From positions 1 through 63,879 of IMG/VR virus record IMGVR_UViG_3300044971_001666: a stretch of DNA of 63,879 nt; one strand, 5' to 3'. The notes beneath the pieces were generated by a model that was not told where the DNA came from, made no database searches, and was given only the letters and a program-made list of their open reading frames with translations. This stretch comes from a virus. Its lineage: Duplodnaviria > Caudoviricetes. Below are positions 27,901-63,360 of the stretch, in pieces. How positions within the stretch are numbered: position 1 is the first letter of the stretch; every line of letters begins with the position of its first letter. The translations under genes were made by a program, and so were the position numbers.

Positions 27901-30900
27901 AGAACAAGTAGAACAAAAGCCTACAACAGCCGAAAAAGTAGCTAAAGCCGAAAAAAGCATTAACGACATTCGTAACAAACTAAAAGAAAAATTCAAAGTA
28001 AACTTACCCGAAGGAACACAAACCAAAGGATTTACAATGAACGAATTAATTGATGTAATAGCTGATACTGCAATACAAATAGCTAAAACAGGAATTGAAA
28101 TAAACGAAGCAATAAAACAAGCTATTCAATATTTAAAAGAAGAAGGCGATTTAGAAGACTTTGACGAAACCGAAATTTTTGATAAAGCCAAAGAAGCGGT
28201 AAGTACCACCGAAGCAGCAATAGTAAAAGACCCTATTTTAAAGCGTATAAACAAAGCATTTTTAAAGATAGGTACTGAAATACTTGACAATGCCGAAGCG
28301 TTAATGGCTAAAGCAGCAAGCATAGTTGGCGATGTAAGGAAAAACGTAACAGCAGGATTTGAAACAAGGGATGGCAAACCTATTGGCTTCACTTACGATA
28401 CAGACCAAGTAGCAAGAGAAAGGTTTGACTTCTCTAAATTAAAACAAATAGGCAAAGGAAGTGACAGAACTGTTTTTGATTTAGGTAATGGAAGAGTGCT
28501 TAAAGTTGCTCATACAGCAAGAGGATTAGAGCAAAATATTTACGAAGGAGATTACCTTTTAAAAGGGATTATTCCAGAAGTTTTTGAAAGAGGGCTTAAT
28601 TATGTTGTTGTAGAAAACACTCCAAGACTAAAAGCAGCCGACAAAGTAATTACTTACGACTACGAAACAGGCGAAGAAAATGGCACAACAACAGCAGGAG
28701 ATATGTTAAGGCAGCTAGGTCAGTTTAATCAGTCGCATTTTGAAAAGCATAATGATAACCTACTTAGAATACTTGGAAAGTTTGGATTTAGCGATATAAT
28801 GTCTTATGACGTTTTGTTTGGCGATTTTACTGCAATAAGAAATTGGGGGTATAAAGACGGAATGGCGGTGCATTTAGACGGAGGTACTTTTGGTGGCGTA
28901 AGAATGCTCACTAATCATAAAAATAAAGCACCTTTAAGCGACCCAGAATTTAGGGAGATTTACAATAAGAGTAAGCAGTTAAAAAAACAATTTGGAGATA
29001 CTGATAAAAACACTAGGTTCAATATTACAATGCCTAATGGTAGCCAAGTAACGGTTAAGCCATTTGAATCAAATAGCGAGGATAAAAACAACGCCCTTAT
29101 AAGAGAAAACAATATAGAAGGCAAGTTACTTAACAAGCAAGAATCGGAAAGTCTTCAAAAGGAAATTGAATCTAAATACCAAATAGAAGGTCAGCCTAAA
29201 TTTGGACAAGAAAATGAAGATATTAGAACAAATTTATTTAACTACGAAAATCCGATAGCAGAAAAAGATGTAAATGGAGTTAATTTAAGAATTGCAGAAG
29301 GATTAATAGAGGGAGAAAAATTTTCTGGCAATAGAAAAAAAACCTTTTTACTGTACGCAGATGGTAAAATAGTTGGTAAGTTTTATTCTGTTGAAGATGC
29401 TAAAAAAGTTGTAAAGTTTATTGAGCAAAATCTAATTAATCAAAAAACACTACTCCCACAAGGTCAACCCTTATTTCAATTAAACGACAAAGGAGAAATA
29501 CTTGGCTTTACTCATAACGGTAAAATATACTTAAACGGAGAAAAAATAACAGCTAATACCACAATGGAAGAGGCTGGACATATTTGGATTAATTGGGCTA
29601 AAGAAAACCGTTCAGACTTATACAAACAAGGCATTGAGAAGGTATTAGGAAGCAAATATTTAATCGAAGTAAACAATAACCCTAACTACCAAGCAGAAGC
29701 CCTTAAAGCAGGGGAAAAAGGCAGCGAAGCGTATAATGCTTATATGCAAGAAGAAGCATTAGCAAAAGCAATAGCTGATAATGGTGCTAAGTTTATTACA
29801 GAAACAAGAAAAGCTAATTTCAGAGAGTGGGTAACTGCAATGTGGAAAGAAGTTGTAAAAGCCTTCGGAATACAGAACTTATCACCTAATCAAGTTAAAA
29901 AACTAACTTTAGAGCAATTTGCTAAAATGGCTGCTGCCGATGTGTTCAAGAAAGAATCGGTTATGACTGATAAGGAGAAAGCAACTGCTAAAGTAGAAAT
30001 ATTAGACGCTGACCAAAAAATGTTAGTTGACGATATTACCATTGCTGAAAATGACGAAGAAACTATACAAGGCGTAAAAGGCTTTATAGATTCTATGAAT
30101 AGAGCAAAAGGGCTTACTCAAGAAGAGAAAGACGCAATGAATGAGCGTTTGGGTAGGAACTATGAAGTATTATCAAATGAAAAACTTGAACTAATTGGTA
30201 AAACTATTATTGAAGAATTAGGTGGACTAGACAAGGCATTATTAGAAGCGCAAAACGCTAAATCTGATTTATTGCCTTACATGAAAACCTTTATTCTAGG
30301 TCAAGCAATACTTGAGAATAAGAAATTAGAACAAAACGCTGCAACCCAAGAAGCCAAAAATAAATATGCCGACATTCAAATAGATTTGTTTGATAAACTA
30401 GACAACCTTTCAAGGGATTTTGGTAGAGCAATTCAATACTTAAATAAACTTTACAGCAAAAGCGCATTAGCGGTAACTAGAAAAGCTAAAAAGATTTTAG
30501 CTGATAGAAATGGTGCGAACCAAATTGAAGCCGAACAAGCAGCCGATAAAATAGAAGCAGCAATATTTGAAGATGATAATACAGATTCAGCAAACGAAGC
30601 CTTACAAGACCTTTTAAATAACGAAAAGGAAAAAGTAAAAGAGTTAGAAGCTGCTTACGAAAAACTTAAAAAACAAATTGCTAATCCAACCGAACCAAGA
30701 CCTAATAATCCTAAAAGAGATTTAGGCTCAAGTAAGGATAAAAAAGCAACTATAAAAAGACTTAAAGAAACCAAGTACAATGCGAATAGACAAAACATAA
30801 TTCCTATTGCACCTCCTAAACTAATGGAAGATTTAAATGATTTGACATTAGAATACATGGAAGAAGGATTTTATGATTTTGAGGACATTCAGAAAAAACT

Positions 30901-33900
30901 TAAAAAAGATTTAGGTGGATTACACTCTGATTATTACGCAGAAGCATACGAACAATCGAAAGAAAAAGCAGTAAGTAAAGGAGTAAAAGAAAGCGAATTT
31001 ACACCAACCGAGCAAGTAAATACTATTTTAGATAAGCAACGTGAAACAAGTGATGCTGCTAAACTAGCGAAAGCAAGCGAGAGGTTAGCGAAAGCACAAA
31101 TTGAAAAGGTAAAACAAGCACTATCAACAGATGCTAATAAAAAATCGTTCAAGGAAAGACTTAAAAACCTAATACCTAAATCGGGAAACATTTGGCTTAA
31201 ATATCAAGAAAGCAATGTAAATTCATTGGTAGCTAAACTAAATGCAACTGCAAGTAAAAATGAATCTCCTTTATTGGCTGAATTTTCAAAATTGGTTACT
31301 CAAAATATAAACGAGAAACTAAATGAGTTAATGCCTAAAGGAAACAATGTAAGCCAAGAAAAAAATAAATCGTTAGAACTTGCTGACATTATTAAGAACG
31401 AAGAAAAGTTTGCAGAAATTTACGAAAAGGCACTTACTAAAATTAAGGAACAAAATAAAGATAACCCAAAAGCAATTTCTTTATTAGAAAACCTTTTAGA
31501 ACAAAACGACTTAGGAAAACCATTTAGCAAAAAAGCTATCTCAAATGCTATTGAACAAAAAATAAAACAAACCAAACAAAGCATTGACGATGTAATTATC
31601 GAAGGAGAAGAAAGTATATTAGCATTTAAACAAAAGATTGTAGATAGTATTTTAAAAGATGCCGAACTAGACACAGAAGTAGAAGCGGAAATTAAAGATA
31701 GGATTGAGTTTGAAGTTGATAATTTGTTCAACACACAAGCAAAAAATCACTACAAAACCACAGCGCAAAGAATTGTTAATGATGCTAAGTCAATGGCAGA
31801 TTTACCTACTACTAAAAAAGAAGCAAAGGTAATAAGCCAATTAATTAGTAAAGTAGCTTCAATGGCAAAGGATACCATGATAAACAAAAAACAAGTGGTT
31901 GGTAAAACACCACTTGAATTAATGGAATTTGCTTTAAAAAATGCTGAAATAGGTAGAAAAATATTTACAGAAGCACAAAAAGAAGTTCAAGACATTATAA
32001 AGAATGACGAAAACTTAACAGCCCAAGAAAAAGCTGATTTAAAACAGTTTTTAGAAAATTATCAAAAGTCAATATTTGATGCGCTTCTTACCAATAAAAA
32101 TAAGGACTTAATAATAAAAGAAGCCCTAGTAAAATTAGGTTACGCAACACAAGATAGTAAAGGAAATATAGTAGCTGATTTAGGGAAAATTGCATTAAGC
32201 AAAAACACTCCTAAAGAAGCAATTGAAAAAGTTAAAGAAGCGATAAGTAATGAGTTAGGTTTAGACCCTAGCGAAATTGACGACTTACTAGCTGCTTTAG
32301 AAACAAGATTTAATGAACTTATTCAAGCTAAAAAAGAAGCTAAAATAAACGCTGTTGTAAAAGCAAACGATAGATACAAAGCAGCTACACAATTTTCAAA
32401 CAAAGCTAGGAAAGATAAAATACGTTCACTAATTGAACTTTACAATGCGGGTGGTTTAACAAACGATAAGATTTTAGAAAAAATGGCTCGTGATTTAGGT
32501 ATTATAGCCTTTACGGATAACGACCAAAAGATTATTGAAGACTTGTTACAGCGTATTGATAATGCGGGTTTAGGTTTTGTTAGTGCGGGTTTAGAAGAAG
32601 AACTACAAGCATACTTTGAACATATAGGCGGTACTTTTGCCATGAAAGAAATGTTTGAGCGTTGGAGAGCAAGATTACTTTCGGGCTTTATTACAACGGG
32701 CAAAAACTTAACAGGCTTCTTTGATACGGGCTTTATGATTGGACACCAATTAATAGATTCCAATATGAACATGGGTTTGTTGAAAGGTAATGTTGACTTA
32801 AATATTTTAAAAGTAATTAGACAAGCCAATAGAATTGGAGGAACACTAGCCTTAGAAAGTTTAGTAAATGGAAGTGTTGATAACGGAAGTGCTTTTGCCG
32901 AACAAACTGGTCAAAAAGAAGGAACACCAAGCGTAAGGTTTTTAGAATTTCAAAAATATCACAACTATTGGACACCTGATTTACCCGTAACCGTAAAAGG
33001 CGTAACATTTAACTTAAACCCAATAAACGCCTTAAAGAAAAACGAAAAATACGTTCAAAGGGTTTTAGGTGCAACTGATAGTGTAAACCATACTATTTTG
33101 CAAGAAATGAAATCATACACTTTTATAAAAAGAGTGGTAATGAGAGGTAGCCCCGAAATGAGTGCGAAAGAGGCTGCGAAAGTGGCTTATGAAATTATGT
33201 ATTACTTAGACATTACAGAAGCAACAATAGCTGCATCTGAAATGTATAAAGAACAAGGTTTAGACATAGATAAAAACAAAAGAGCTTTTAATAAACTGGT
33301 TTACAAACTAGCACAAGACCATACTTTATTTAGGGCTTTAAGAAAAGCGACTGATGAATTTAAAAAATCAAACATTGAATATACTTCAAAAAGCGGGAAA
33401 CTAAAATTAAACAGAAGAATAAATGAGATTGCTCAACAAACAAGAGCAGACGATGTTATAAAAGCTGCTACTGAATTTGCTTCGAGATATACTTATAAAC
33501 AATCTGATATGGGTGTGTTTCCTTTAGTAGCCAACTTAATTAAATATGTAAAAGACGTATTTCCATTAATGGCAGCAAGGATTAGAAAGAATGCAAAAGG
33601 CACAGCGTATTCAAAACAAGCTAATAAAATAGCAAATGGTATTGAAATAAGTGGAGAACTATTATTTACAAGTACAATGCCTTTTATAAATGGTGTGGCG
33701 AATATTCTTGAAAAAGGATTAGAGTTTAACCCTATTTACGGTGGAATAAAATCAGCAACTTACTTAGGACTAGCTTTAAATGCTAATAACAAAAAAGATA
33801 CAACAAAAGCAAGAGAACTTTCAGCAAAAAGCGGTGAAGTTATTTACAGAGTAGCGGTTGGAATGTTATTAATGGCACTTTTACAATCACTAGCAGACGA

Positions 33901-35086
33901 TGACGAAGCAGACGATGAAAAAGCAATTTACGGACAAGGAGATAAGAACTTTAATAGAAACAAAGTTATAGAAACTGTTCGCCCTCAAAATACCATAAGA
34001 ATAGGTGGGCGTGATATTTCATTCGATTTCTTTGGAACACTAGCAACTGAAATAAAAATACAGTCAATTGCAATGGACTTAAAAAGATACGCTGATAAAG
34101 AAATTACTAATACTCAATATATGGGTATGGTTTATAATCAAATTATAAGTTCATCATTCACAAAAGGACTTTCGGATATTGCAACCGCAGCTTCAAGTAC
34201 AGCCCAAACAGGTAAATTAGCTACTTATTTTGAGAAAAAAACAGCCGAGCTATCTACTAGAGTAGTTTTACCATTTACAAGTTTTGCTAGACAAGCGGGG
34301 CAAGTAGCAGAACCCGAAGCTAAAAAAGCAATTGGTTTAAAAGAAAATATAATTAAACAAGCGGGCGTTGGTGGTTGGCTGTTAAACAGACCGAACCTAG
34401 ATTATAGAGGAAGAACTTACGATACGGGCGAACTTTATACAAGTAGTGCTAGTGGCGCAATGAATTTATTTGGAAGTAGAGTAAATAAAGACCCTATTGA
34501 TATTTGGGTTTTAAAAGCTGCAAACAATAATTTAGGAGTTAGCGACATCAAAAAAGATAGTGATAAATTTTATTTAGTTGACAATCCCGATGGAACTTCT
34601 CGCCCAATGACTGACGAAGAAACTTATGATGTTTCAGCAGAAGCAGCTAGAATATTTAATGGTTTATTGGTTGACTACTATAATAAAGAAAAGAACAATC
34701 CTATTACTAAAACAAGTCAAGAGCAAGTTGCGAAAGATTTAAGCGAAAGACATAACGAAGCTAAAAAAGCATCGTTTAGAAAATTATTTAAAGGCAGTAA
34801 AAACGAGGACAAATATTTAGAAGATAAATTTGATTGGCTTAAAAAAGACGAAGGCAAAGAAACTGAAATCAAAAGAGCAGCCGATGATATTGCTAATAAA
34901 GTTAGTGAAGAAACAAAAGCATTGCGTGATAGATTACCTAAAGACAAATACGACAAACAAATATTTTTAGCTAAAATGCTTCGCTCAATAGTAAACAAAA
35001 CTACCACCTTAAAACAATGGAAAGAAGCGGGCATTATTGAAAGCGTAGAGAAAGAAGGACAAGAGATATTGAAATTGTCAAAATAA
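21914..35086 (+). CDS. giant polyvalent virion (ejection) protein, 4390 aa
   Basis: Gly/Ala membrane-like segments, HEMSGH zincin-like motif, ELQSD motif, kinase-like segment, long coiled coils. Confidence 0.8.
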   Translation: MPVEKDYIGGLHGYLKENFGDDFKLTTEQFKSKLSTDSAYANQLHGYLKENFGEGFKLDIADFQNKVGYIDPSKKKQNSSPNFATTLQEAITPLPSGVQKPLESSSPLASNLKSVATEKPIDAKTALLQKANQEQNLSNPLEGTTQTDVFIEENRKPTVLNMAKSINNKSQERVKVLTERVGLLKGIKDFEAQIPKIQESAQQLSDIVKDPTQPITSRQAAQEQLKLYQDQFDQFENAVNNYKGLIDKEKSIITDIHKDEDLRQKGLERDYNSITAFVDAIKSSTIKVGAGGAGMFNTLGLSGDPEDTNSENNEQVQNEVRNNVQTIKKFGESLVTQETPKNFEKIFEGDFSTKKLKYILAQGIGQTIPTVAAGFLGGAGGATIAGAGLGFIESKDMFKAAGLNEKQSDWAAFGLAIPLGALDEYGISDIITKPIGKLILKETTEDVIKTLAKKELTNEAIFETVKKTLGEKIKEYSIDVAKAGWKEPLTEMEQALLSEGAKQATEEITGKDSNANQTLSEYFKQTALKIAEEGVYGLAGGVGLSAVTSAIQNRTTPSAYQRAMELKNPELLQDFTEQLDSEVQSGRLTTEQAQIALENVKKIQELDGKIPNTIKDIDKRSMAASLVGVKDELKLEIEGKDETLVQPLKDEIKNIDQTLLDIAQNKPIEEIENGLNEQETSMSEIPTNQEQKIETPQETKTTTTPSSDNSSEVAALGSVEVPKTLSQLKISDEITQTLENKLKGLESERTNKLIENKGKGKFDDRLKDEIEEVKRNIYKRENELASRRNSDLESKIKDGSLLKLISENKITAEDARGLIIESGMEIPSEIQSIVDKNKQDKKENKQSIIERDTDFLGNEKEAYMVNNDKANGIRTQEDIDYYKANVKRAIESGKYEKSVKEGRMTANDARIIVESYGLKVPKTLETLLKTEQTNEPTPIEATIPTSNKGTQTAEPTKQDGEAKVESKPIALPKENDVVTLEVPNRLPIKMAFKDGVWKQKIGNEFTEVAKSVQDNAQAKFDEQNKTQLENGINKTESKESKPITIQRGKEADKEGANANARNEAKREEIKSAFKKLRDEGLLKTADKTLIGKAKRVLGIKSAPMSDAEIDVQMALIDAMADVWKKTTGKDNFYETFIADVKKGNLAELQKIGGVLFQDTENTKRPTTRVTLAVFDATQFEKMKGQQVAPQAISDLVKGRGKQIEKDIINMVLGYDKYKGQKRISFDEFRSDVETQIMKLEKIRTDSYANYGYDNLGDNENYGERETVIFNSPIEHGEKGHFSGDFTTEGLDKTEWELKQIPNTDKWAAMDKNMPSNVTADNVAEYVGTAGEKAEVEKWIADRDKESIGGLNKGLFGHIRKWFNKSDGIFHIAELQSDYYQKNKASDLLKPEVGQDEIDAYMNKNVWQPMDREISRKIKEQFGITVKKFDDKFIAYDKEGRPLSEVELKEEPLVGLNVGDFEENAVVVYALKSLSERRVNDEKLENGTYKGTLNTSKDGGKIDTVILNTEKEVEDFAKANDGRLNGSEDSYNVIRENYHEERKKLRQTEEQKFIQKRQAELEKTKPTNIQLKQFVASQKVHELRLLREAIKMAADEGAETVRFPDQYTLAVIEGYTDATGQGNTPYEVVNGDSDRLYEGDMIDYGGENMTVVEQNRDTITVVPSDEVSIYNLYDLINDETDDRVREIEYEAKRHFGDMEAITKEDVESYEPDEWMGAEAKSLLEEYFEQNEEEETVSWKEIKNGLYDSINSNYSEMSVDDILGWSGTVWQDGDTIYAIEGRNYETFNQPDGYEESSTKEDYYDNLSSDQKTVVDKYGELGKQFEKMRPDARLIQDENGMGWYETTITEEDKNNPIVAFQEEGGKVKGAIDFTNNNKATLYVFDGADISTLAHEMSGHLGRRVLEKLAEASPEFAKKYEAVKKWAGVKDVWTTKAEEKFARGFERYLRDGVAPTKALKEVFSKLKEWLSGIYKIIKGSSIDVKLTNDVRNVFDSLLGKEQVEQKPTTAEKVAKAEKSINDIRNKLKEKFKVNLPEGTQTKGFTMNELIDVIADTAIQIAKTGIEINEAIKQAIQYLKEEGDLEDFDETEIFDKAKEAVSTTEAAIVKDPILKRINKAFLKIGTEILDNAEALMAKAASIVGDVRKNVTAGFETRDGKPIGFTYDTDQVARERFDFSKLKQIGKGSDRTVFDLGNGRVLKVAHTARGLEQNIYEGDYLLKGIIPEVFERGLNYVVVENTPRLKAADKVITYDYETGEENGTTTAGDMLRQLGQFNQSHFEKHNDNLLRILGKFGFSDIMSYDVLFGDFTAIRNWGYKDGMAVHLDGGTFGGVRMLTNHKNKAPLSDPEFREIYNKSKQLKKQFGDTDKNTRFNITMPNGSQVTVKPFESNSEDKNNALIRENNIEGKLLNKQESESLQKEIESKYQIEGQPKFGQENEDIRTNLFNYENPIAEKDVNGVNLRIAEGLIEGEKFSGNRKKTFLLYADGKIVGKFYSVEDAKKVVKFIEQNLINQKTLLPQGQPLFQLNDKGEILGFTHNGKIYLNGEKITANTTMEEAGHIWINWAKENRSDLYKQGIEKVLGSKYLIEVNNNPNYQAEALKAGEKGSEAYNAYMQEEALAKAIADNGAKFITETRKANFREWVTAMWKEVVKAFGIQNLSPNQVKKLTLEQFAKMAAADVFKKESVMTDKEKATAKVEILDADQKMLVDDITIAENDEETIQGVKGFIDSMNRAKGLTQEEKDAMNERLGRNYEVLSNEKLELIGKTIIEELGGLDKALLEAQNAKSDLLPYMKTFILGQAILENKKLEQNAATQEAKNKYADIQIDLFDKLDNLSRDFGRAIQYLNKLYSKSALAVTRKAKKILADRNGANQIEAEQAADKIEAAIFEDDNTDSANEALQDLLNNEKEKVKELEAAYEKLKKQIANPTEPRPNNPKRDLGSSKDKKATIKRLKETKYNANRQNIIPIAPPKLMEDLNDLTLEYMEEGFYDFEDIQKKLKKDLGGLHSDYYAEAYEQSKEKAVSKGVKESEFTPTEQVNTILDKQRETSDAAKLAKASERLAKAQIEKVKQALSTDANKKSFKERLKNLIPKSGNIWLKYQESNVNSLVAKLNATASKNESPLLAEFSKLVTQNINEKLNELMPKGNNVSQEKNKSLELADIIKNEEKFAEIYEKALTKIKEQNKDNPKAISLLENLLEQNDLGKPFSKKAISNAIEQKIKQTKQSIDDVIIEGEESILAFKQKIVDSILKDAELDTEVEAEIKDRIEFEVDNLFNTQAKNHYKTTAQRIVNDAKSMADLPTTKKEAKVISQLISKVASMAKDTMINKKQVVGKTPLELMEFALKNAEIGRKIFTEAQKEVQDIIKNDENLTAQEKADLKQFLENYQKSIFDALLTNKNKDLIIKEALVKLGYATQDSKGNIVADLGKIALSKNTPKEAIEKVKEAISNELGLDPSEIDDLLAALETRFNELIQAKKEAKINAVVKANDRYKAATQFSNKARKDKIRSLIELYNAGGLTNDKILEKMARDLGIIAFTDNDQKIIEDLLQRIDNAGLGFVSAGLEEELQAYFEHIGGTFAMKEMFERWRARLLSGFITTGKNLTGFFDTGFMIGHQLIDSNMNMGLLKGNVDLNILKVIRQANRIGGTLALESLVNGSVDNGSAFAEQTGQKEGTPSVRFLEFQKYHNYWTPDLPVTVKGVTFNLNPINALKKNEKYVQRVLGATDSVNHTILQEMKSYTFIKRVVMRGSPEMSAKEAAKVAYEIMYYLDITEATIAASEMYKEQGLDIDKNKRAFNKLVYKLAQDHTLFRALRKATDEFKKSNIEYTSKSGKLKLNRRINEIAQQTRADDVIKAATEFASRYTYKQSDMGVFPLVANLIKYVKDVFPLMAARIRKNAKGTAYSKQANKIANGIEISGELLFTSTMPFINGVANILEKGLEFNPIYGGIKSATYLGLALNANNKKDTTKARELSAKSGEVIYRVAVGMLLMALLQSLADDDEADDEKAIYGQGDKNFNRNKVIETVRPQNTIRIGGRDISFDFFGTLATEIKIQSIAMDLKRYADKEITNTQYMGMVYNQIISSSFTKGLSDIATAASSTAQTGKLATYFEKKTAELSTRVVLPFTSFARQAGQVAEPEAKKAIGLKENIIKQAGVGGWLLNRPNLDYRGRTYDTGELYTSSASGAMNLFGSRVNKDPIDIWVLKAANNNLGVSDIKKDSDKFYLVDNPDGTSRPMTDEETYDVSAEAARIFNGLLVDYYNKEKNNPITKTSQEQVAKDLSERHNEAKKASFRKLFKGSKNEDKYLEDKFDWLKKDEGKETEIKRAADDIANKVSEETKALRDRLPKDKYDKQIFLAKMLRSIVNKTTTLKQWKEAGIIESVEKEGQEILKLSK

Positions 35087-38069: not shown

Positions 38070-38753
38070 TCATGCTTTTATGTGTTGGTAAATAGTTTTA
38101 AGCGTATAATTAATGCTGTTTTCATTCAGCTTCACCTTAATATCTTTTGCAGCCATTCCATTTTTAGCATAGGCTTTGATTAGTTCTACTCCGATTGGTG
38201 AAGTAGGTTTGTAGGTACGGTTTTTTGCAACTAGAGCCATTTGTTTTTTAGCATACTCTTTATCTTGCATAAGAGGACTACCTAGAGAAGTAATTGTATT
38301 CCCTTTTTTGGTAACGTAAACCTTATCTTTTTTAAGTCTATTTTTTATAGAGTTCAATCCATTAACGGTTCTTTCGGAAATCATTTCACGCTCCCTTTGT
38401 GCCATAGCTGCAAATAAATTTATTGTAAAGCCATCACATTCAGGCATATCCGAACATATAAACTTAACCTTACTTTCCATGAGTGAACTAATAAAGTAAA
38501 CATTTCTCGAAAGTCTATCCAGTTTAGCCACAACTAAAGTAGCGTTATGTAGCTTACACATATTTATAGCTTCTAAAAGCATGGGTCTATTATTCTTTTT
38601 GCCCGATTCTATTTCGGTAAAAGACTTAATTACAATACCACTATCTGTTATCTGCTTCACAGCCTTTTCTTGCGCTTCTAAACCAAGTCCGCTTTGACCC
38701 TGTTCTTTAGTAGAAACTCTTTTATAAGCCACATATTTTTCATCGTTTTGCAT
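38070..38753 (-). CDS. small serine recombinase (resolvase/invertase family)
   Basis: YVAYKRVST.EQ..SGLGLEAQ, ESGK..NRP, LVVAKLDRLSR, ERE.ISERT. Confidence 0.93.
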   Translation of the reverse strand: MQNDEKYVAYKRVSTKEQGQSGLGLEAQEKAVKQITDSGIVIKSFTEIESGKKNNRPMLLEAINMCKLHNATLVVAKLDRLSRNVYFISSLMESKVKFICSDMPECDGFTINLFAAMAQREREMISERTVNGLNSIKNRLKKDKVYVTKKGNTITSLGSPLMQDKEYAKKQMALVAKNRTYKPTSPIGVELIKAYAKNGMAAKDIKVKLNENSINYTLKTIYQHIKA

Positions 38754-40006: not shown

Positions 40007-40405
40007 CTAAAAAGGCAACGAATCGTTTCCATCATCTTCTACTTCGCTAAAACTAGGCTCTCCTTTTGCTAGTGGTCTTTCTAATGGCGCAGAAGGAGTG
40101 CTTTGCGTAGGTGCTGAATTACTGTTAGCAGCCCATACATTCCAAGCGATAAGGTTTGTAAAATACTTTCCTTGCCACTCTCTCGAAACTGGCTCATACT
40201 TAACGGTACATACCGAACCTAAACTTGGAGTTTTAACTTTATCGCTTTTGATTTCAAATGCAATCTTCTTAGGATATTCACCATTCGTTTCAATGACAAA
40301 CACTCGTTTAACACCCTCACCTTTTTGAGTTTGGTATCTTTCTTCGGGTAAAACTGCGATAACCGTTCCAATCGCTTCGGGGCTTTTCTTTTCTTCTGCT
40401 GACAT
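40007..40405 (-). CDS. DUF3127 family SSB-like protein
   Basis: FVIET.GEYPKKIAFE...SREWQGKYFTNLIAW and acidic DDGNDSLPF tail. Confidence 0.88.
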   Translation of the reverse strand: MSAEEKKSPEAIGTVIAVLPEERYQTQKGEGVKRVFVIETNGEYPKKIAFEIKSDKVKTPSLGSVCTVKYEPVSREWQGKYFTNLIAWNVWAANSNSAPTQSTPSAPLERPLAKGEPSFSEVEDDGNDSLPF

Positions 40406-40503
40406 ATTCTTCGTTTAATTATATTACAAATTAACTACATTGTAATAAATAATGCAAGAAATATTTTATTTATTTTTTACTTGTTTATTAAAGACATAAC
40501 AAT

Positions 40504-40511
40504 TACTTTTG
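40504..40511 (+). promoter_or_regulatory. TAnnTTTG promoter upstream of RHH gene and cassette array 1
   Basis: TACTTTTG with TTG at 40481. Confidence 0.6.
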
Positions 40512-40536
40512 TAGTATATAAATTATTACAATCAAA

Positions 40537-40677
40537 ATGATTAAGGAAAAAGACATAGTAATAAGAGTAGAACCCGAATTTAAAAAGACGCTGCAACAAA
40601 AGGCTAAATTACTAGGTCTTAGTTTATCTTCTTTCGTTAGGTCTGTTTTAGTAAAGGAATTGAAAAACAATAAATAA
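40537..40677 (+). CDS. ribbon-helix-helix DNA-binding protein (not in ORF track)
   Basis: manual translation MIKEKDIVIRVEPEFKKTLQQKAKLLGLSLSSFVRSVLVKELKNNK. Confidence 0.8.
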   Translation: MIKEKDIVIRVEPEFKKTLQQKAKLLGLSLSSFVRSVLVKELKNNK

Positions 40678-40708
40678 AATGAAAAATAAATTGTCAAAGC
40701 GAAACGAG

Positions 40709-40739
40709 AAGCCCGCCTTTTGCTTATGTGCTGTTATAT
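40709..40739. repeat. half attC-like site (one arm plus core)
   Basis: AAGCCCGCCTTTTGCTTATGTGCT-GTTATAT resembles the right arm of 41655..41787; no partner arm upstream. Confidence 0.65.
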
Positions 40740-40808
40740 GAAGTGCCGACTTATTTACGATAAAGCCCAATTGGAACACTAAACAGAAAAACAAAAAGAA
40801 AAAAAGCG

Positions 40809-41072
40809 ATGGGAAATTTAAAACAAAAATTAAGTAAATACCAAAATCCAACTTTGATAAACGGGACTATTTATTACAATGTTCCTGAAAATGTATTGGA
40901 TAATTTAGAAAACGACAAGTGGGAACACTTTACGGATAAAAAATACCCTGAAAATGATTGTGATATTGTTGTTTTTAGCAACAAGAAACACAAATATTAC
41001 ATTGAACATACGGATAGTGAATTTTGGGAAAGATGTATTAATAGAAACTATATAAAATGGATGAAATTATGA
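40809..41072 (+). CDS. hypothetical cassette protein
   Basis: ORF starting right after the inner inverted repeat. Confidence 0.65.
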   Translation: MGNLKQKLSKYQNPTLINGTIYYNVPENVLDNLENDKWEHFTDKKYPENDCDIVVFSNKKHKYYIEHTDSEFWERCINRNYIKWMKL

Positions 41073-41323
41073 AACAACAAACAGCAGTAGAATGGTTAGT
41101 AGAACAACTAACTCCTTCAATATCGTTACAACAAAAACATATTGATGAATTAAAAGAGAAAGCTAAAGAAATGGAGAAAGGTCAAATAGTTGATGCAGGG
41201 GTTTTTACATTTCAACTAACTGATAAAACGCCTTACGGAATGGAATATCTAAGCAAACTTGATAATGCAATTTCAAATGCGGTGTATTATTATGATGAAA
41301 CTTATAACAAACAAAATAAATAA
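41069..41323 (+). CDS. hypothetical cassette protein (QTAVEWL-type small phage protein)
   Basis: MKQQTAVEWL...AKEMEK.QI...YYDETY. Confidence 0.7.
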   Translation: MKQQTAVEWLVEQLTPSISLQQKHIDELKEKAKEMEKGQIVDAGVFTFQLTDKTPYGMEYLSKLDNAISNAVYYYDETYNKQNK

Positions 41324-41324
41324 A

Positions 41325-41582
41325 ATGGAAACAAGTAAAGAATTAAAAACACCTACACAACACATGATGATATGGGTGTTGCAAAACTTTGAAAAAGAGT
41401 TGGAAAACGATATTGATAAAGACAAGTCGCTTGATGAAATATTTGATGAAACACTAACTTTTGAGCAACGAAAAATGAAAGAGTTTTTTGTAGCAGGAAT
41501 ATTTAAAGGTAAACAGAATATAGATTTTGACTTAGATGAAGAATTTAAAAAGTTTTACTCAAAATTATTCCCCGAAGAATAA
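41325..41582 (+). CDS. hypothetical cassette protein
   Basis: METSKELK start just after previous stop. Confidence 0.6.
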   Translation: METSKELKTPTQHMMIWVLQNFEKELENDIDKDKSLDEIFDETLTFEQRKMKEFFVAGIFKGKQNIDFDLDEEFKKFYSKLFPEE

Positions 41583-41654
41583 AAGTGCGGTGGCTTTTTT
41601 CTTTTTGTTTTTCCTTCACGGAACTTCAATTGGAAACGGTAAGCAAGGCATTTC

Positions 41655-41787
41655 ATATAACGTTTTGCAGCTACCAGAAGGGCGGGATTTTAACAACAAA
41701 ATAAATTTAAAAAGATGAATTATAATTTAACCACAAATGCTTCTAACGAAGCCGAAAGCCCCGCCTTTTTGGTAGGTGCTGTTAGCA
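41655..41787. repeat. attC-like site
   Basis: ATATAAC-gtttt-GCAGCTACCAGAAGGGCGGG...CCCGCCTTTTTGGTAGGTGC-t-GTTAGCA. Confidence 0.8.
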
Positions 41788-42644
41788 GTAGTGCCTTTCT
41801 CGAATTAAAATAAAACTTCTGGGCGGAGTTATAAAACCCAATAAAAACAAAATGAATAATTTAAAAAATGAACCAATGGTGAAGCATAGTAACCAAGTTC
41901 ACACAACAACAGATTACTTTCTATTTAACCCAATAGAAGGTAACAGAAACAAAAACTTGTTACACATTAACAGATTAAAAAAATCAATGGCAGAAAACTA
42001 TTTATTTACGGTTATTATCGTAAATGAAAAGCATGAAATTATTGATGGGCAACACAGGTTTGATGTAATTCAAGATTTAAAACTACCGTTGAATTATATT
42101 ATTTGTAAAGGTTATGGATTAAACGAAGTTCACATTTTAAACCAAAACTCTAAAACATGGAACGCTGATGACTATTTAACTGGATATTGCCAGTTAGGTT
42201 ATGAGCATTACATTGAGTATGCAAAGTTTAAATCTAAATTTGGATTTGGGCATAATGAATGTATGCTATTGCTTGGCGGGTCTGATACGGGACATTCAAT
42301 AAAAGAGTTCTATTGTGGTGAATTTAAGATAAAGGATTACAATAAAGCACTTGAAAAAGCCACAAAAATAACAATGATAGGAAAGTATTATGATGGCTAT
42401 AAAAAATCTTCTTTTGTTAGAACTATCGCTCAAATTTTAGATAAGCCTGTTTTTGATTTTACTCAATTTATGCAGAAATTAAGAATACAGCCAACGGCAT
42501 TGCAGGACTGTTCAAATAACGAACAATACAAGCTATTGATTGAGGAAATTTACAATTACAGAACAAGAGAAAAGGTTAATCTTAGATACTAGTTTAATTG
42601 CGGGGTGTCAGTCGGCTTGCGGGTCGGCTGGCATTACTGCTAAC
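41781..42644 (+). mobile_element. gene cassette A2 (ParB-like gene)
   Basis: ends GTTAGCAGTAGTGCC (41781-95) and GGCATTACTGCTAAC (42630-44), 14/15 inverted match. Confidence 0.8.
41852..42592 (+). CDS. ParB/Srx-like N-terminal domain protein
   Basis: GNR...INRLKKSM...IIVNE...IIDGQHR. Confidence 0.8.
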   Translation: MNNLKNEPMVKHSNQVHTTTDYFLFNPIEGNRNKNLLHINRLKKSMAENYLFTVIIVNEKHEIIDGQHRFDVIQDLKLPLNYIICKGYGLNEVHILNQNSKTWNADDYLTGYCQLGYEHYIEYAKFKSKFGFGHNECMLLLGGSDTGHSIKEFYCGEFKIKDYNKALEKATKITMIGKYYDGYKKSSFVRTIAQILDKPVFDFTQFMQKLRIQPTALQDCSNNEQYKLLIEEIYNYRTREKVNLRY

Positions 42645-42711
42645 GGGTCGCAGATACACGCTGTGAGCGTTGGATTGAGGGAGGGAAAATAGCGTGTATG
42701 TGCTGTTATAC
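42638..42711. repeat. attC-like site
   Basis: TGCTAAC-gggtc-GCAGATACACGCT...AGCGTGTATGTGC-t-GTTATAC. Confidence 0.8.
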
Positions 42712-43040
42712 GCTGCCTTTATTACTAATTTAATTTAAAAACAAAAATATGAACGCAAAAGAAAAAGCAAAAGAGTTAATCGAAAAATATCAAAAAATTG
42801 ATATTGAAATAGGTGGTCAATATGATGGCTACCTTACAATGAAAATACACGATGCCAAACAATGTGCTTTGATAGCAGTTGAAGAAATACTAAATGCAAG
42901 ACCATTAGACCCTAATTATGTAGATTGGGATGATTGTGGGGCAGCACACCAATATTGGTATGAAGCACAAAAAGAGGAAGCACTTGAATTTTGGAATAAT
43001 GTCAAATCGGAGTTGCAGTCTTTGTAAGGTTGCGTATAAC
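42705..43040 (+). mobile_element. gene cassette A3
   Basis: ends GTTATACGCTGCCTT (42705-19) and AAGGTTGCGTATAAC (43026-40), 13/15 inverted match. Confidence 0.8.
42749..43027 (+). CDS. hypothetical cassette protein
   Basis: stop codon overlaps cassette end; paralog at 37236..37436. Confidence 0.75.
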   Translation: MNAKEKAKELIEKYQKIDIEIGGQYDGYLTMKIHDAKQCALIAVEEILNARPLDPNYVDWDDCGAAHQYWYEAQKEEALEFWNNVKSELQSL

Positions 43041-43059
43041 TACTGTATAACTGCAACAA
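43037..43059 (-). other. candidate attI-like terminal site of array 1
   Basis: - strand reads TTGTT-GCAGTTATACAGTA-GTTA; same layout as 62021..62043. Confidence 0.5.
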
Positions 43060-43074
43060 AAAGGATAAATAAAT

Positions 43075-43305
43075 ATGAGAGTATCAGTAAGTTATATAGT
43101 TGTTTGGCAAGTTGTAATTAATGGAATTGAAACACCTTATAAGTTCACAAAAGACGGTATTTGTATTAATACCCAACGATGCAAAATATTAAAAAAAGTA
43201 TCAAAAAATTCAACAATAGGATATAATTTTCATTCAAAATTTTACCCACTTTTAAAAGTTAAATTACTAATGCAAAAAATAAAAATAAATAAATTACCAT
43301 TTTAA
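43075..43305 (+). CDS. small basic array-adjacent protein ending in LPF
   Basis: YKF...LKKVS...K..PL...LPF; resembles 61729..62019. Confidence 0.7.
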   Translation: MRVSVSYIVVWQVVINGIETPYKFTKDGICINTQRCKILKKVSKNSTIGYNFHSKFYPLLKVKLLMQKIKINKLPF

Positions 43306-43307
43306 AC

Positions 43308-43475
43308 ATGAGCGAAATAGACAATTATTGCAGTATAAAAGACTTTGCCTTATCCAAAGGTGTTACCACACAAGCTATTTATCGTCAAATAAAGCGAGAT
43401 AGTTTAAAAGAGGAAAAGTTTAGGAAATTGACAATAAAAAAAATAGGTTTAACAACAATAGTTAAAGTAAAATAA
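43308..43475 (+). CDS. small winged-HTH/excisionase-like protein (not in ORF track)
   Basis: manual translation MSEIDNYCSIKDFALSKGVTTQAIYRQIKRDSLKEEKFRKLTIKKIGLTTIVKVK. Confidence 0.7.
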   Translation: MSEIDNYCSIKDFALSKGVTTQAIYRQIKRDSLKEEKFRKLTIKKIGLTTIVKVK

Positions 43476-43476
43476 C

Positions 43477-43785
43477 ATGAAATCACAAGCACCAATAGAC
43501 GAGTTAGAAGTAAAAGCAAAGTTGGAGAAATCGCTAAGTGAAATGGGCGTGATGTGTTATATTATCAGTAAGCATAATCAAGAGTACCTAGACAGTATTT
43601 ACGGAATGAGAAAACTAATGATTAGCAAGGAATTTTCGGTGATGAATAGACTTAGAATAGCTAATCAAGATTTTGTTACTAAAACCGATAAATCACTAAA
43701 AAAAGCTAACTTAGACATATCTAAGATTGAGGAATTAGTTACAGATATGCTCGAAAAAATAGAACTTGAATTTAAAAAATTATAA
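43477..43785 (+). CDS. hypothetical protein
   Basis: ORF in operon. Confidence 0.6.
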   Translation: MKSQAPIDELEVKAKLEKSLSEMGVMCYIISKHNQEYLDSIYGMRKLMISKEFSVMNRLRIANQDFVTKTDKSLKKANLDISKIEELVTDMLEKIELEFKKL

Positions 43786-43788
43786 TAA

Positions 43789-43995
43789 GTGAAGAAACTA
43801 GATTCCGTAGAAATCCGTAGAGCAGAATTAGTAGCAATCATTAACGAAAAATGGGCTGACAAAAACAAACCTAAAGAAGTAATTGTTGAGCCTAAAAAAT
43901 GGACTAAGGAAAAGCTAGAAACTACCGACATTTCCGTAGAAAAAGTTAAAGAACAACCGAAAACAAAGACTAAAGTGCAAACAGAATTATTTTAA
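43789..43995 (+). CDS. hypothetical protein
   Basis: ORF in operon. Confidence 0.55.
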   Translation: MKKLDSVEIRRAELVAIINEKWADKNKPKEVIVEPKKWTKEKLETTDISVEKVKEQPKTKTKVQTELF

Positions 43996-44000
43996 AAGTT

Positions 44001-44324
44001 ATGGAAGTAAAGTGGACAGAAAGATACTCATTTGACGATTATCCTGACGAGCGAAATAGATGGGCTAGAGTAGGGTATGCGGGATTATTTAATAAGGATG
44101 GTACTCCTAAATTTGATAAAAAATTAGATACTTGGAAATATTTTGAAATAGCATGGATTAGCCAAGTAAGTTTTATTCATTCAGAAACTAAGCAAATGAC
44201 TAAAACTTATGTAGTTTCGTACAGATTTCCTAATTACGGTAAACTAAGTTTTAGCGACATAGATGATGCTAAAAAAGAAGTTGAGAACCAATTGAAGATA
44301 TTTTTAGAAATAATGAATAAATGA
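44001..44324 (+). CDS. hypothetical protein
   Basis: ORF in operon. Confidence 0.65.
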   Translation: MEVKWTERYSFDDYPDERNRWARVGYAGLFNKDGTPKFDKKLDTWKYFEIAWISQVSFIHSETKQMTKTYVVSYRFPNYGKLSFSDIDDAKKEVENQLKIFLEIMNK

Positions 44325-44989
44325 TAAAAGTCAAGCCTAAAAAACCAAAAGCACCAAACCAAAACCCCGATTGCAAAAAATGTGGTAAGCCATTTAAGCG
44401 ATATAAAACAACTAAATCAATTTGTGATGAATGTATTTTTAAAGCAATTGATTACGGTAAAGAAAACCCTCAAAAAGTTTCACAAACCGCAATTAAACAA
44501 GCTAAGAGTGCATTTAAAAAAGAAGTTATTAGAGATACAGCATGGTATTTAAAAAAACTACAAGACGAGGTAAATTTAATTGCAAGGCTAATTGATAAAG
44601 ATTGCGTATGTATTAGTAGTTTGCGCCCAATGGCATCAGAAGAAATTCATGGAGGACATCGTTGGAATACAGCCGATTATAAAGCAATAAGGTTTAATTT
44701 ATTTAATATCCACTCACAATCATTGTCGGACAACCACTTTAAAAGTGGAAATGCTGACGGATACGTTAAAGGATTGAATATAATGTACGGAAAAGAATAC
44801 GCTGACATGGTTCAAGACTTACCAAATCAATACAATGAAATTAAACACATGAGAACTGACTTAGAGCAGTTTTATAGAGCAGCGCAAGGGGTAACTAAGT
44901 TTTTAAAACTAGAAAATAAAACCTATACACCAAGTGAACGAATTGAGTTGAGAGGGAAGCTAAATAAAATGATAGGAATTTTTGACTAA
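44321..44989 (+). CDS. NinG/Rap-like recombination endonuclease
   Basis: CKKC..C zinc motif; LQ..VN..ARLID...CISS...GGH...IRFNLFNIHSQ...N...SGN. Confidence 0.85.
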   Translation: MIKVKPKKPKAPNQNPDCKKCGKPFKRYKTTKSICDECIFKAIDYGKENPQKVSQTAIKQAKSAFKKEVIRDTAWYLKKLQDEVNLIARLIDKDCVCISSLRPMASEEIHGGHRWNTADYKAIRFNLFNIHSQSLSDNHFKSGNADGYVKGLNIMYGKEYADMVQDLPNQYNEIKHMRTDLEQFYRAAQGVTKFLKLENKTYTPSERIELRGKLNKMIGIFD

Positions 44990-61728: not shown

Positions 61729-62019
61729 TTAAAAAGGTAATATTTGTATGTTTTTTATAAAAGTTTCTATTTTGTTTTTTCTATTTGCTTTTAGCCATGT
61801 TAAACTTTTTGGCTTAGTGTTTATCTTAGCGACCTTACATCTACCACTCATATAGGTTGATACTGGTTTTAAATTGCTGTTTATTTTCTTGTAAACCTCA
61901 TTGCCACTAAAAACATAATCTGTGTTCGGTAAATAATGAGTTATAATTACAAAATCACAACTCATTATTCTTTCTGTCGGTATAGCCGAAATGCTTGTTA
62001 TTGTTGGTTGTATTACCAT
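61729..62019 (-). CDS. small basic array-adjacent protein ending in LPF
   Basis: YVF...LKPVS...K..SL...LPF; resembles 43075..43305. Confidence 0.7.
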   Translation of the reverse strand: MVIQPTITSISAIPTERIMSCDFVIITHYLPNTDYVFSGNEVYKKINSNLKPVSTYMSGRCKVAKINTKPKSLTWLKANRKNKIETFIKNIQILPF

Positions 62020-62020: not shown

Positions 62021-62043
62021 TTGTTTCGCCAATCTACGAGTTA
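62021..62043 (+). other. candidate attI-like terminal site of array 2
   Basis: TTGTT-TCGCCAATCTACGA-GTTA. Confidence 0.5.
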
Positions 62044-63276: not shown

Positions 63277-63360
63277 AAGGCATTGGCAAAAGCGGCTGAC
63301 AAGTTCCTGCATAAATCAAGCGGTTTCCAAGCCGCCTTCGCCAATGCCCAACCGTTAGCG
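63270..63360. repeat. attC-like site
   Basis: AAGTAAC-aa-GGCATTGGCAAAAGCGGCT...AGCCGCCTTCGCCAATGCC-caacc-GTTAGCG. Confidence 0.85.

Follow-up and report, generated by a model that had tools for sequence, protein, structure and literature searches.

In the accepted view, integrons are platforms of bacteria with the integrase IntI at their core. To our knowledge, earlier reports on phages described only platform-less attC clusters (CALINs) and a few captured bacterial integrons. The main text of Qi et al. (2023; PMC9892861) describes integrase-less attC clusters of this kind in virulent phages, including a Polaribacter phage, from a survey of 10,705 NCBI phage genomes in which DNA methyltransferase cassettes were common; the word "Xer" occurs 0 times in that main text. 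We analyzed a freshwater phage with two hairpin-bounded gene-cassette arrays. The window, by which we mean the whole stretch of DNA analyzed (63,879 nucleotides), is a linear record with an estimated completeness of 54%, that is, about half a genome.

Like the phage CALINs described in the main text of PMC9892861, the window contains attC-type clusters and methyltransferase cassettes, with integron integrase absent. Unlike them, its arrays are accompanied by a conserved terminal site and a small platform gene and, in relatives, by an Xer-like integrase, all of which are unreported there, the supplementary boundary tables of that paper aside. With the same tables aside, neither the junction nor the small-gene family was described in the literature that we found, and the same holds for Xer-like integrases at phage attC arrays.

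The resemblance to integrons is also partial. As in integrons, cassettes are separated by imperfect palindromes bounded by ...TAAC and GTTA..., a non-palindromic, putatively primary site lies at one end of the array, where the newest cassettes would be located, and some relatives have a tyrosine recombinase gene transcribed away from the site. By our reading, the would-be recombining "bottom" strand mostly folds into the stabler of the two hairpins (in about 21 of 27 elements). Unlike in integrons, the window has no integrase, the linked integrases are Xer-like and miss the integron-integrase cut-offs, the paired arms around TAAC/GTTA exceed the 7-bp R boxes, and the phage platform includes a small NUMOD4-related gene. 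Besides, the cassette genes of the window face the site, the mirror image of the classical arrangement, so that expression from a platform promoter would be impossible. Read on the opposite strand, the phage junction corresponds to a classical attI...G|TTA with the cassette genes inverted.

Cassette arrays of the window phage

Read in the direction of the genes, each cassette unit consists of an attC-like hairpin that has TAAC and GTTA as its bounds, then one ORF or a few, and lastly TAAC. Array 1, on the plus strand, has at its far end the inner arm and GTTA of an attC-like site, the 3' half of that site (positions 40705 to 40747, repeat family D4). Closer to the junction are an attC-like hairpin with a long loop (41658 to 41784; z = -3.1), a cassette (41785 to 42640) with a 246-aa ORF (41852 to 42592), a second attC-like hairpin (TAAC...GTTA; 42641 to 42708), more stable on the plus than on the minus strand (-22.9 versus -14.5 kcal/mol), and the last cassette (42709 to 43040), which ends in TAAC and holds a 92-aa ORF (42749 to 43027) for which the family search was empty. 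The 246-aa ORF gave nothing in Pfam at an E value of ≤0.01 and matches a gene labeled as a ParB-like partition protein in a cultured Flavobacterium phage. Array 2, on the minus strand, has a last cassette with inverted-repeat ends (62044 to 63272) that encodes a C5 cytosine DNA methyltransferase (62071 to 63198; PF00145, E = 2.4e-42). It is preceded by an attC-like hairpin (63273 to 63357; z = -4.36; -41.8 kcal/mol on the minus versus -31.3 on the plus strand), a cassette (63358 to 63794) whose 125-aa ORF (63367 to 63744) also had an empty family search, and a further attC-like hairpin truncated by the end of the contig (63795 to 63879; z = -2.95).

The TAAC...GTTA hairpins are more stable than shuffled sequences (z values of -2.2 to -4.4) and form one family across loci, and several of their R' boxes depart from RRRY (attC cores being RYYYAAC and GTTRRRY). 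Provided that these sites count as attC, each array holds at least two nearby attC-type sites with integron integrase absent, which is what delimits a CALIN (41658 to 41784 with 42641 to 42708, and 63273 to 63357 with 63795 to 63879). In both arrays the cassette ORFs run towards the junction, and the small gene lies downstream of them in the same direction. The attC-like hairpins are 5' of the small gene both in the window and in the other loci. A strict scan of the wider set of loci placed 17 upstream and 1 downstream. The same family of elements is found in cultured Flavobacterium phages (46 records, 85 to 89% identity over about 100 nucleotides). One of them, vB_FspS_lillamy9-1 (MN812212.1), has an array between two methyltransferase genes and a terminal TAAC junction as in the window; unlike in the window, an unrelated 65-aa ORF comes after it.

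The terminal junction and cassette turnover

The original prediction was that both arrays end in a non-hairpin, attI-like site followed by a small gene whose product ends in LPF, and the sequences, the ORFs, and the copies in other loci (25 of 25 tabulated, plus locus L024) agree with it. The junction of array 1 (TAACTACTGTATAACTGCAACAA, 43037 to 43059, plus strand) begins with the TAAC that forms the 3' end of the last cassette (43037 to 43040) and continues into the conserved site; that of array 2 (TAACTCGTAGATTGGCGAAACAA, 62021 to 62043, read on the minus strand) likewise consists of TAAC plus the attI-like site. The conserved stretch after TAAC measures about 20 nucleotides at both array ends, the small genes start 20 to 34 nucleotides farther along on the same strand, and neither junction folds better than its own shuffles (z = -1.33 and +1.98). 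After TAAC, the two sites of the window are identical at 10 of 19 positions, so that, compared alone, they are weak evidence for a conserved site, the real support coming from comparative data. A pattern search for the site is circular, because the pattern is built from these same two sequences.

Among the copies of the small gene, TAAC followed by T is found 20 to 35 nucleotides upstream in all 25 that were tabulated. In locus L020, the TAAC-T junction is 52 nucleotides 5' of an integrase gene that precedes the small gene, and L024 is arranged in the same way. Overall, each of the 26 copies examined from two families has the site directly 5' to it, with an Xer-like integrase gene intervening in 2. 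Within the wider family (35 loci, one of them a duplicate), the junction was clear in 26, variant in 4, unassessable in 3, and absent in 1, and both its position and its sequence were kept among proteins with just 31 to 50% identity. The DNA 5' of TAAC is unrelated even among loci whose small genes are 95% identical, and in seven groups of loci a common variant of the site is abutted by different cassettes.

The evidence for turnover comes from assembled contigs. Loci L001 and L003 are 99.97% identical outside their last cassette (L001, 3428 to 4489, versus L003, 5649 to 5962), with the breakpoints at TAAC. Homology between the window and L001, L003, and L005 breaks at 43035 to 43040. Window positions 42524 to 43040 correspond to L005 2028 to 2544 at 96% identity; there an attC-like site, not the junction, comes next, and the last cassette of array 1 sits two cassettes farther from the junction. 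In sample X5, four contigs reach 43040 and then enter an attC-like arm, and other contigs begin at 43035 to 43037. Across samples, the points where contigs begin or part from the window lie at 43035 to 43040. Every comparison places the breakpoints inside the 4 to 6 nucleotides around TAAC. Habitat was not judged from the labels (lake water, wastewater) of runs outside this comparison. One contig of sample X3 joins 41655 to 43035, a form without the last two cassettes, and its support was too weak to count. In X5 and X7, contigs cover the cassettes and the small gene and leave the backbone at 40400 to 40667 and 43348 to 44400 uncovered; this gap was set aside as evidence, since missing contig cover proves nothing.

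Judged from these assemblies, cassette gain, loss, and replacement appear to take place exactly where the last TAAC meets the conserved site, which supports the view of the site as a hot spot of cassette insertion or replacement. Given that related phages seem to exchange cassettes exactly there, the site behaves like the entry point of an enzyme-less integron, and its predicted role as the place of cassette entry agrees with the L001/L003 breakpoints, the cassette shift in L005, and the X5 contigs. Site and small gene also appear to form one module that moves between unrelated phage backbones: the window and L001 have in common only 43037 to 43311 (275 bp, 97.5% identity), with unrelated sequence on both flanks.

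Exchange between repeated hairpin flanks by homologous or illegitimate recombination has been proposed for the promoter-stem-loop cassettes of T4-type phages, and the differences described above could have the same origin, the junction then being a leftover 5' half of an attC-like site instead of an attI. The absence of a recombinase in the window would suit this explanation, as would the 9-mer ATTGGCGAA that the junction of array 2 has in common with the 5' arm of the neighboring attC-like site in sense-strand reading (the spacer before it is 2 nucleotides shorter at the junction). The main text of Qi et al. (PMC9892861) raises homologous or illegitimate recombination for the boundaries of phage CALINs as well. 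We consider it improbable, however, in view of the narrow breakpoints around TAAC in every comparison, of a junction that keeps its position and sequence next to such divergent proteins, and of the Xer-like integrase genes 52 to 73 nucleotides from the same kind of junction.

The small-gene families

The gene behind the junction of array 1 (43075 to 43305, plus strand) encodes a 76-aa protein with an LPF end (P0001, family 1; 33 close homologues), and that of array 2 (61729 to 62019, minus strand) a 96-aa protein also ending in LPF (P0002, family 2; 18 homologues). At 50% identity, family 1 comprises 125 representative clusters, 84 of which have the Pro-Phe end, and the terminal P and F codons show synonymous variation among members. 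Beyond the small gene, the genes differ from locus to locus.

Whether the two families appear homologous depends on profile depth. BLASTP gave no alignment of P0001 with P0002 at an E value of ≤100, hhalign with shallow profiles gave an E value of 0.027 (in a separate shuffle test, 53 of 300 column shuffles did as well as the real alignment), and a deep family-1 HMMER profile run across the window recovered the family-1 gene alone, missing family 2. Deep profiles in hhalign did join both families (E = 0.0047), a score attained by 0 of 400 column shuffles, and the motifs that the original prediction had listed as shared (Y-x-F, LK-x-V/I, K..SL, and a terminal PF) stand in the same register in that alignment. 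Homology by profile comparison therefore held with deep hhalign and failed with BLASTP, shallow profiles, and HMMER. The expectation that homologs would adjoin the site or the arrays across phages was borne out by the 26 of 26 copies and by 26 to 30 of the 32 assessable loci of the wider family.

A loose likeness to NUMOD4, with no catalytic motif, had also been proposed. The NUMOD4 modules found in homing endonucleases of the HNH and GIY-YIG types resemble the small proteins in being small, in their beta strands, and in a Y-x-[FV]-[ST]..G pattern; unlike them, the window proteins stand alone, are basic, and have a conserved Pro-Phe carboxy-terminus. P0001 and P0002 showed nothing significant in Pfam or PHROGs and contained no HNH, GIY-YIG, LAGLIDADG, or PD-(D/E)XK nuclease domain. 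Neither matched PF07463 (NUMOD4) at an E value of ≤10, nor did any of 21 members of both families; in Pfam searches of 126 wider family-1 members, NUMOD4 was found in 2 (best E, 2.1e-05). The likeness is hence seen in a few relatives and not in the window proteins themselves, while the lack of a catalytic motif stands. The AlphaFold2 model of P0002 had a pLDDT of 84.3, versus a poor 59.7 for the model of P0001, and no fold match was significant. Against PDB folds, the P0002 model gave a best E value of 0.19 with TM-scores of about 0.25 and no OB-fold match; against the ESM Atlas, its top score (0.82) was inside the range of shuffled proteins. Matches in BFVD named homing or HNH endonucleases, none of them at an E value of ≤0.001.

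The fold names, together with the two NUMOD4 matches and the fused family members of 168 to 187 aa with MUG113, T5orf172, or GIY-YIG on their N-terminal parts, could be taken to mean that a homing-endonuclease-type system uses the small protein as its DNA-binding module to target the site, its nuclease having been lost or acting in trans, and that breaks there stimulate exchange. Since the small proteins of the window have no nuclease domain, and since exact TAAC/GTTA boundaries and attC-like hairpins suit site-specific recombination better than break repair, we regard this as very unlikely, more so than any other explanation weighed here.

When prokaryotes were scanned for the family, with each species represented by one genome, the only match was a short contig of a Bacteroidota MAG, so the family looks phage-borne. 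A separate metagenome scan added just four loci, and tblastn of P0001, P0002, and P0175 yielded no credible match among 50,697 phage records. At the level of sequence comparison, the small proteins thus appear as a large phage-restricted family of about 74 to 96 aa, beta-rich, weakly related to NUMOD4, and ending in Pro-Phe.

The C-terminal tip of bacterial SSB consists of acidic residues followed by I/L-P-F. Like this tip, the small proteins have x-P-F as their last residues; unlike in it, the residues preceding PF are basic or hydrophobic, not acidic. Thus, where an SSB tip combines an acidic tail and [IL]-P-F with an OB-fold protein, the small proteins have basic tails and matched no OB-fold. 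In the phage itself, an SSB-like DUF3127 protein has DDGNDSLPF as its last residues.

Recombinases and the role of the small protein

In two loci (L030 and L033), the array is followed by the TAAC site and then by an Xer-like integrase gene, and in two others (L020 and L024) the order is array, site, integrase, and family-2 gene. The integrase genes are 52 to 73 nucleotides from the junction, and in two loci the end of the integrase gene and the small gene overlap, as they would in an operon. A dcm cassette of L033 is 88% identical over 1,047 nucleotides to one that abuts a family-1 gene in L001. The linked integrases (about 273 to 286 aa) are Xer-like, with a XerA-like protein as best PDB match, and remain below the cut-offs of integron-integrase models (142.6 bits for TIGR02249, cut-off 265; 188.5 bits for NF040815, cut-off 220). 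Among viral contigs, close relatives of the L020 integrase were confined to its own record. The small gene had been predicted to occupy the position of intI and to mark the platform; in agreement with this, it follows the site in all 26 copies, and an Xer-like integrase sits in that position in L030 and L033 and beside the gene in L020 and L024. The coupling of gene and site, together with an integrase at the same position in relatives, supports the description of the locus as an entry site plus platform marker.

Within the window, we found no PF00589 tyrosine recombinase at an E value of ≤1 and no Y1 transposase, so an IS200/IS605-type Y1 transposase was rejected as the array enzyme. A serine recombinase gene (38070 to 38753) was also discarded, its homologue being absent from all other loci. 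Tyrosine recombinases were absent as well from four related records and from the complete genome of lillamy9-1, despite its array and junction; for most platforms the search therefore turned up no enzyme. The term "minimal platform" used in the original prediction seems fair for the window, a record of about half a genome.

Our preferred reading, with a probability of roughly 55%, is that the two sites are attI-like primary sites of phage integron-like arrays and that the small protein coupled to them is possibly an accessory or targeting factor, or a regulator; its part as an accessory factor is what we infer. The protein would bind DNA at or near the site and may act with an Xer-like recombinase, which a few phages would provide in cis and most would obtain in trans from the host or a co-infecting phage, and its Pro-Phe carboxy-terminus may be a docking tip for a partner protein. 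A predicted complex between integrase and family-2 protein obtained weak support (score of 0.34 versus 0.00 for the best control), to be read against a benchmark in which 58 of 80 solved complexes attained the mark, as did 2 of 110 mismatched pairs; only 7 of those 80 complexes, and both passing mismatches, did so at 0.60 or under. At least 70% of the contacts agreed between runs, with a partner pLDDT of at least 83.

Alternatively, the entry point may be genuine and the small gene a passive neighbor, simply the first downstream gene, such as a regulator or an anti-defense protein. Several observations fit this explanation. A complete genome with direct terminal repeats (G007, 100% complete) has integrase and site and no match to the small-protein families at an E value of ≤1; in L028 and L029, family-1-like copies behind integrases are broken by in-frame TAA stops and miss the PF end; and lillamy9-1 has another small gene behind its junction. 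Moreover, variants of the site cross protein families (L015 and L016 with the family-1 site of the window, L006 and L007 with its family-2 site), which argues against strict protein-site covariation. We nevertheless find it appreciably less probable than the preferred reading, because the small gene comes after the site in all 26 copies and in 26 to 30 of 32 assessable wider loci while the genes farther away differ, because the 275-bp module moves between unrelated backbones, and because of the operon-like overlap with the integrase gene.

A bolder form of the preferred reading, in which an attI-like primary site is served by the small protein, is a speculation that we think rather unlikely. 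The Pro-Phe proteins would be a new trans-acting class that binds the attI-like site and recruits an Xer-type recombinase of the host or a helper, or replisome-linked single-stranded DNA, via an end resembling the SSB tip. If this were true, integrase-less phage arrays would keep capturing cassettes such as methyltransferases, and the specificity of an integron platform would lie in a DNA-binding protein of 76 to 96 aa, not in a resident IntI.

What appears to be new here is that, where the arrays grow, a conserved and putatively primary site is accompanied by a conserved small gene and, in relatives, by a non-IntI, Xer-like recombinase. The work shows what marks the insertion end of arrays in integrase-less phages. 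Uncultured freshwater phages of the Bacteroidota type commonly carry such arrays, and the same family of elements is present in cultured Flavobacterium phages, so that cultured phage-host pairs carry an array, though without the small gene. The candidate accessory protein family is now directly testable, and the shuffling of methyltransferase and other small genes by phages becomes experimentally accessible.

Cassette arrays and their terminal junctions

The window is a complete record: one linear contig of viral DNA, 63,879 bases long and estimated to be 54% complete. It covers about half a genome, and array 2 is cut short by the contig end. Nucleotide and protein matches link it weakly to Flavobacterium phages. 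The replication and recombination genes comprise ERF, a DnaA-C-like HTH protein, YopX, NinG, and a DUF3127 SSB-like protein. Further genes encode a serine recombinase and a C5 methyltransferase, and neither a tyrosine recombinase nor a Y1 transposase was found in the 63,879 bases. The serine recombinase (38070-38753, minus strand; PF00239, E 5.6e-23) lies in a mixed-orientation region to the left of array 1, and none of the related loci had a homologue of it. Elsewhere, a single ORF of 4,390 aa spans 21914-35086 (plus strand), and the contig starts with ca. 660 nt of noncoding sequence (1-664) that includes several TATATAAT-like motifs; the fold of positions 240-384 is far more stable on the minus strand (-30.0 versus -14.2 kcal/mol).

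Array 1 contains three cassettes. Array 2 has at least two and ends with a dcm-type methyltransferase cassette. The attC-like hairpins (TAAC...GTTA) are located at 41658-41784 and 42641-42708 in array 1, which also has an attC-like half-site (40705-40747), and at 63273-63357 and 63795-63879 (cut by the contig end) in array 2. All four fold better than shuffles (z of -2.2 to -4.4). The pairing continues outward across the TAAC/GTTA boxes, which makes the ends of each cassette mutual inverted repeats. Cassette genes of both arrays are transcribed toward the junction, with the small gene downstream and codirectional. The methyltransferase ORF is also flanked by a perfect 22-nt inverted repeat (62085-62106 and 63205-63226), inside the outer inverted-repeat ends of the cassette (62040-62055 and 63261-63276). 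At long-loop attC-like sites (window 41716-41805; loci L003, L009, L010, L014, and L019), an ATG in the loop opens a frame that crosses the 3' arm (a short ORF of ca. 29 aa in the window), and the arm-encoded peptides look alike between loci by eye.

The original observation, that each array ends in a junction that is not a hairpin, followed by a small gene ending in LPF, held. The junctions lie at 43037-43059 (plus strand) and 62021-62043 (minus strand), neither folds better than its shuffles, and the small ORFs P0001 (43075..43305, plus strand, 76 aa) and P0002 (61729..62019, minus strand, 96 aa) both end in LPF. The two sites are identical at 10 of the 19 positions after TAAC, which is weak evidence taken alone. 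Junction 2 has a TAAC box and a ATTGGCGAA box, as in the neighboring attC-like arm, with a shorter spacer; since it repeats the arm boxes, it could offer the same two protein-binding boxes, as a candidate double-stranded version of those in the arm. Just 5 of the 472 stop-to-stop frames of at least 40 aa in the window end in PF, the others being the SSB-like protein (40007-40405, minus strand; ...DDGNDSLPF), a 337-aa protein that belongs to no known family (55217-56230, minus strand; ...NPPF), and one antisense frame. This Pro-Phe C terminus, common to four proteins of the phage, might reflect a shared docking partner.

Junction conservation and cassette exchange

Close metagenome homologues numbered 33 for P0001 and 18 for P0002, and we retrieved 13 loci for the former (family 1) and 11 for the latter (family 2). 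The expectation that homologues of the small genes would lie beside the site was borne out: TAAC followed by T was found 20 to 35 nt 5' of the gene in 25/25 tabulated copies (2 in the window and 23 in the loci), L020 standing apart in spacing. There, an integrase gene comes before the small gene, and TAAC-T is 52 nt 5' of that integrase gene; L024 is arranged likewise. Among 35 further loci of the wider family 1, 26 had a clear TAAC junction 25 to 50 nt upstream and 4 had a variant; in the rest, three contigs started at or in the gene, one was a duplicate of L029, and one had no junction. The recurrent core is TAAC, T, ca. 6 nt, and ATTGGCGAAAC or close variants. On the 5' side of the small gene, the loci carry attC-like hairpins that belong to a single sequence family; three weaker downstream matches lack its consensus. 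The scan was a home-made heuristic, unvalidated as a detector, based on TAAC...GTTA, a seed in each arm, and an energy threshold. Site variants cross the protein families: L015 and L016 (family 2) have a site nearly identical to the family-1 site of the window, and L006 and L007 (family 1) have the ...GATTGGCG.AAC... type of its family-2 site, which shows that the two platforms are of one kind.

Sequences 3' of TAAC were conserved. In seven sets of loci, those with one site in common and a gene at 95% identity had unrelated sequences 5' of TAAC. The clearest example is the pair L001 and L003, which are 99.97% identical over the 3.4 kb and 6.3 kb that flank one replaced cassette; the breakpoints are the TAAC opening the preceding hairpin and the junction TAAC, and therefore, the exchanged unit is hairpin plus ORF plus TAAC. 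The window and L001 have only 43037-43311 in common (97.5%), with unrelated flanks on both sides, so site and gene form a mosaic module. The last cassette of the window (42524-43040) recurs in L005 at 96% identity, with two further cassettes before the junction, a position that, judged from sequence, would be expected if cassettes insert at the junction.

We also compared window positions 40400-44400 with contigs from four other runs (labeled lake-water metagenomes), which inform on presence only. Four contigs in run X5 track the last cassette to 43040 and then enter the 5' arm of an attC-like site; in X3 and X7, contigs start at 43035-43037. One 5.6-kb contig matches the window from 43036 on, with different sequence upstream. 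Several contigs begin within 150 nt of the junction. Contig ends inside arrays or within ca. 150 nt of the junction were frequent, as in the window (63795-63879) and at the starts of L002, L012, L016, L045, L046, and L068. Such breaks would be expected if the sampled populations differ in cassette content and assembly fails there. All the evidence of cassette turnover comes from assemblies.

The attC-like element was present in 46 cultured Flavobacterium phage records (85 to 89% identity). In vB_FspS_lillamy9-1 (MN812212.1; locus L080, 2140-4400), it lies between two DNA methyltransferase genes, and the array terminates at a junction of TAAC plus T, after which comes a 65-aa ORF that is unrelated; the complete genome had no tyrosine recombinase.

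The small-protein family

An exhaustive profile search for family 1 gave 125 representative clusters at an E value of ≤0.001, mostly of 72 to 78 aa. A PF end, after C, L, V, T, I, or Y, was found in 84 of the 125, and since the codons of the last two residues vary synonymously, this ending is selected at the protein level. Homology between P0001 and P0002, which was to be judged by profile comparison, found mixed backing. BLASTP did not detect it, shallow profiles gave an hhalign E value of 0.027 in one comparison and, in another, a score (13.8) reached by 53/300 column shuffles, and HMMER with a 126-sequence profile missed the window's family-2 gene, but hhalign with that same profile gave an E value of 0.0047 (score 21.3, 46 columns), reached by 0/400 column shuffles (mean 11.0, maximum 20.3), in the motif register originally proposed. 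The two families are probably homologous on this evidence, although the case is not closed.

The model of P0002 was fair (pLDDT 84.3, pTM 0.71; mostly strands) and that of P0001 poor (pLDDT 59.7). Neither had a fold match at E ≤ 0.001 in PDB or BFVD; the best BFVD matches of both (all with E > 0.001) were repeatedly named homing/HNH endonuclease or NUMOD. As for the description "loosely NUMOD4-like," 2/126 members of the wider family 1 match NUMOD4 in Pfam (best E, 2.1e-05); P0001, P0002, and 21 members of both families had no such match. A few proteins of 168 to 187 aa carry N-terminal MUG113, T5orf172, or GIY-YIG domains. Given these Pfam results, the family is best described as a stand-alone, NUMOD4-related module, and a DNA-binding one is probable.

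A Xer-like recombinase and the comparison with integrons

In L020 and L024, a gene for a tyrosine recombinase of 283 to 286 aa is located between the junction and the family-2 gene, the start of which its end overlaps. The recombinase is Xer-like (best models XerA/XerC/XerD; closest solved relative, a XerA-like protein), with integron-integrase models below cut-offs. At E ≤ 1e-10, we found 439 homologues, mostly of 273 to 275 aa, many of them on 40- to 85-kb contigs. L030 and L033 show the order array, TAAC site, integrase, the gene starting 73 and 52 nt past the junction, respectively; in L028 and L029, the junction is related but of an AAC type. In L033, five or six attC-like sites lie upstream, and the dcm cassette at its junction is the one found next to the family-1 gene in L001 (88% identity over 1047 nt). 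Directly after the integrase, L028 (3480-3700) and L029 (1232-1450) contain family-1-like frames with in-frame TAA stops at different places and no PF end, which may be decaying copies. Among all small-gene loci, an integrase was present within the retrieved flanks only in L020, L024, L028, and L029 (plus duplicate identifiers), and the complete integrase-bearing genome G007 had no match to either small-protein family. A TAnnTTTG box, the Bacteroidota -7 promoter motif, lies between junction and integrase start in several loci (L020 5130-5180, L028, L029, and L030), with none before small genes that directly follow a junction.

The predicted complex of integrase and family-2 protein scored 0.34, against 0.00 for the best control, which is weak support. 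That mark was reached by 58/80 solved complexes and 2/110 mismatched pairs, and at 0.60 or under by only 7 of those 80 plus both passing mismatches. The runs shared at least 70% of contacts, with a partner pLDDT of at least 83.

Phage CALINs with methyltransferase cassettes are already in print, from a survey of NCBI phage genomes with IntegronFinder (Qi et al. 2023, PMC9892861). The available part of that article reports no terminal site, small platform gene, or Xer-like recombinase, and our literature search found nothing closer.

At the level of sequence, these comparisons establish how the arrays are built, where the breakpoints fall, that site and small gene go together, and that relatives have the integrase in the same place. 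We infer that a Xer-like recombinase catalyzes the exchange, in trans for most phages; the small protein would bind the site, and its PF end would dock to a partner. Insertion at the primary site would explain every locus comparison. Read on the strand opposite the genes, the arrangement is like that of an integron: the platform gene or genes are transcribed away from the array, and the primary site (...A|GTTA) is followed by cassettes, each with its own hairpin site to the next GTTA. The gene-sense strand, mostly the one with the more stable hairpin (ca. 21 of 27 elements by our reading), would be the "bottom" strand in the integron frame. As for the proposed "minimal integron platform," the feature would work like an integron, yet an integron requires IntI, which the window lacks and from which the Xer-like recombinase of its relatives differs, and unlike in classical integrons, the phage cassette genes are inverted and read toward the site. 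They would presumably be read from upstream phage promoters, and new genes would join the transcription unit at its 3' end.
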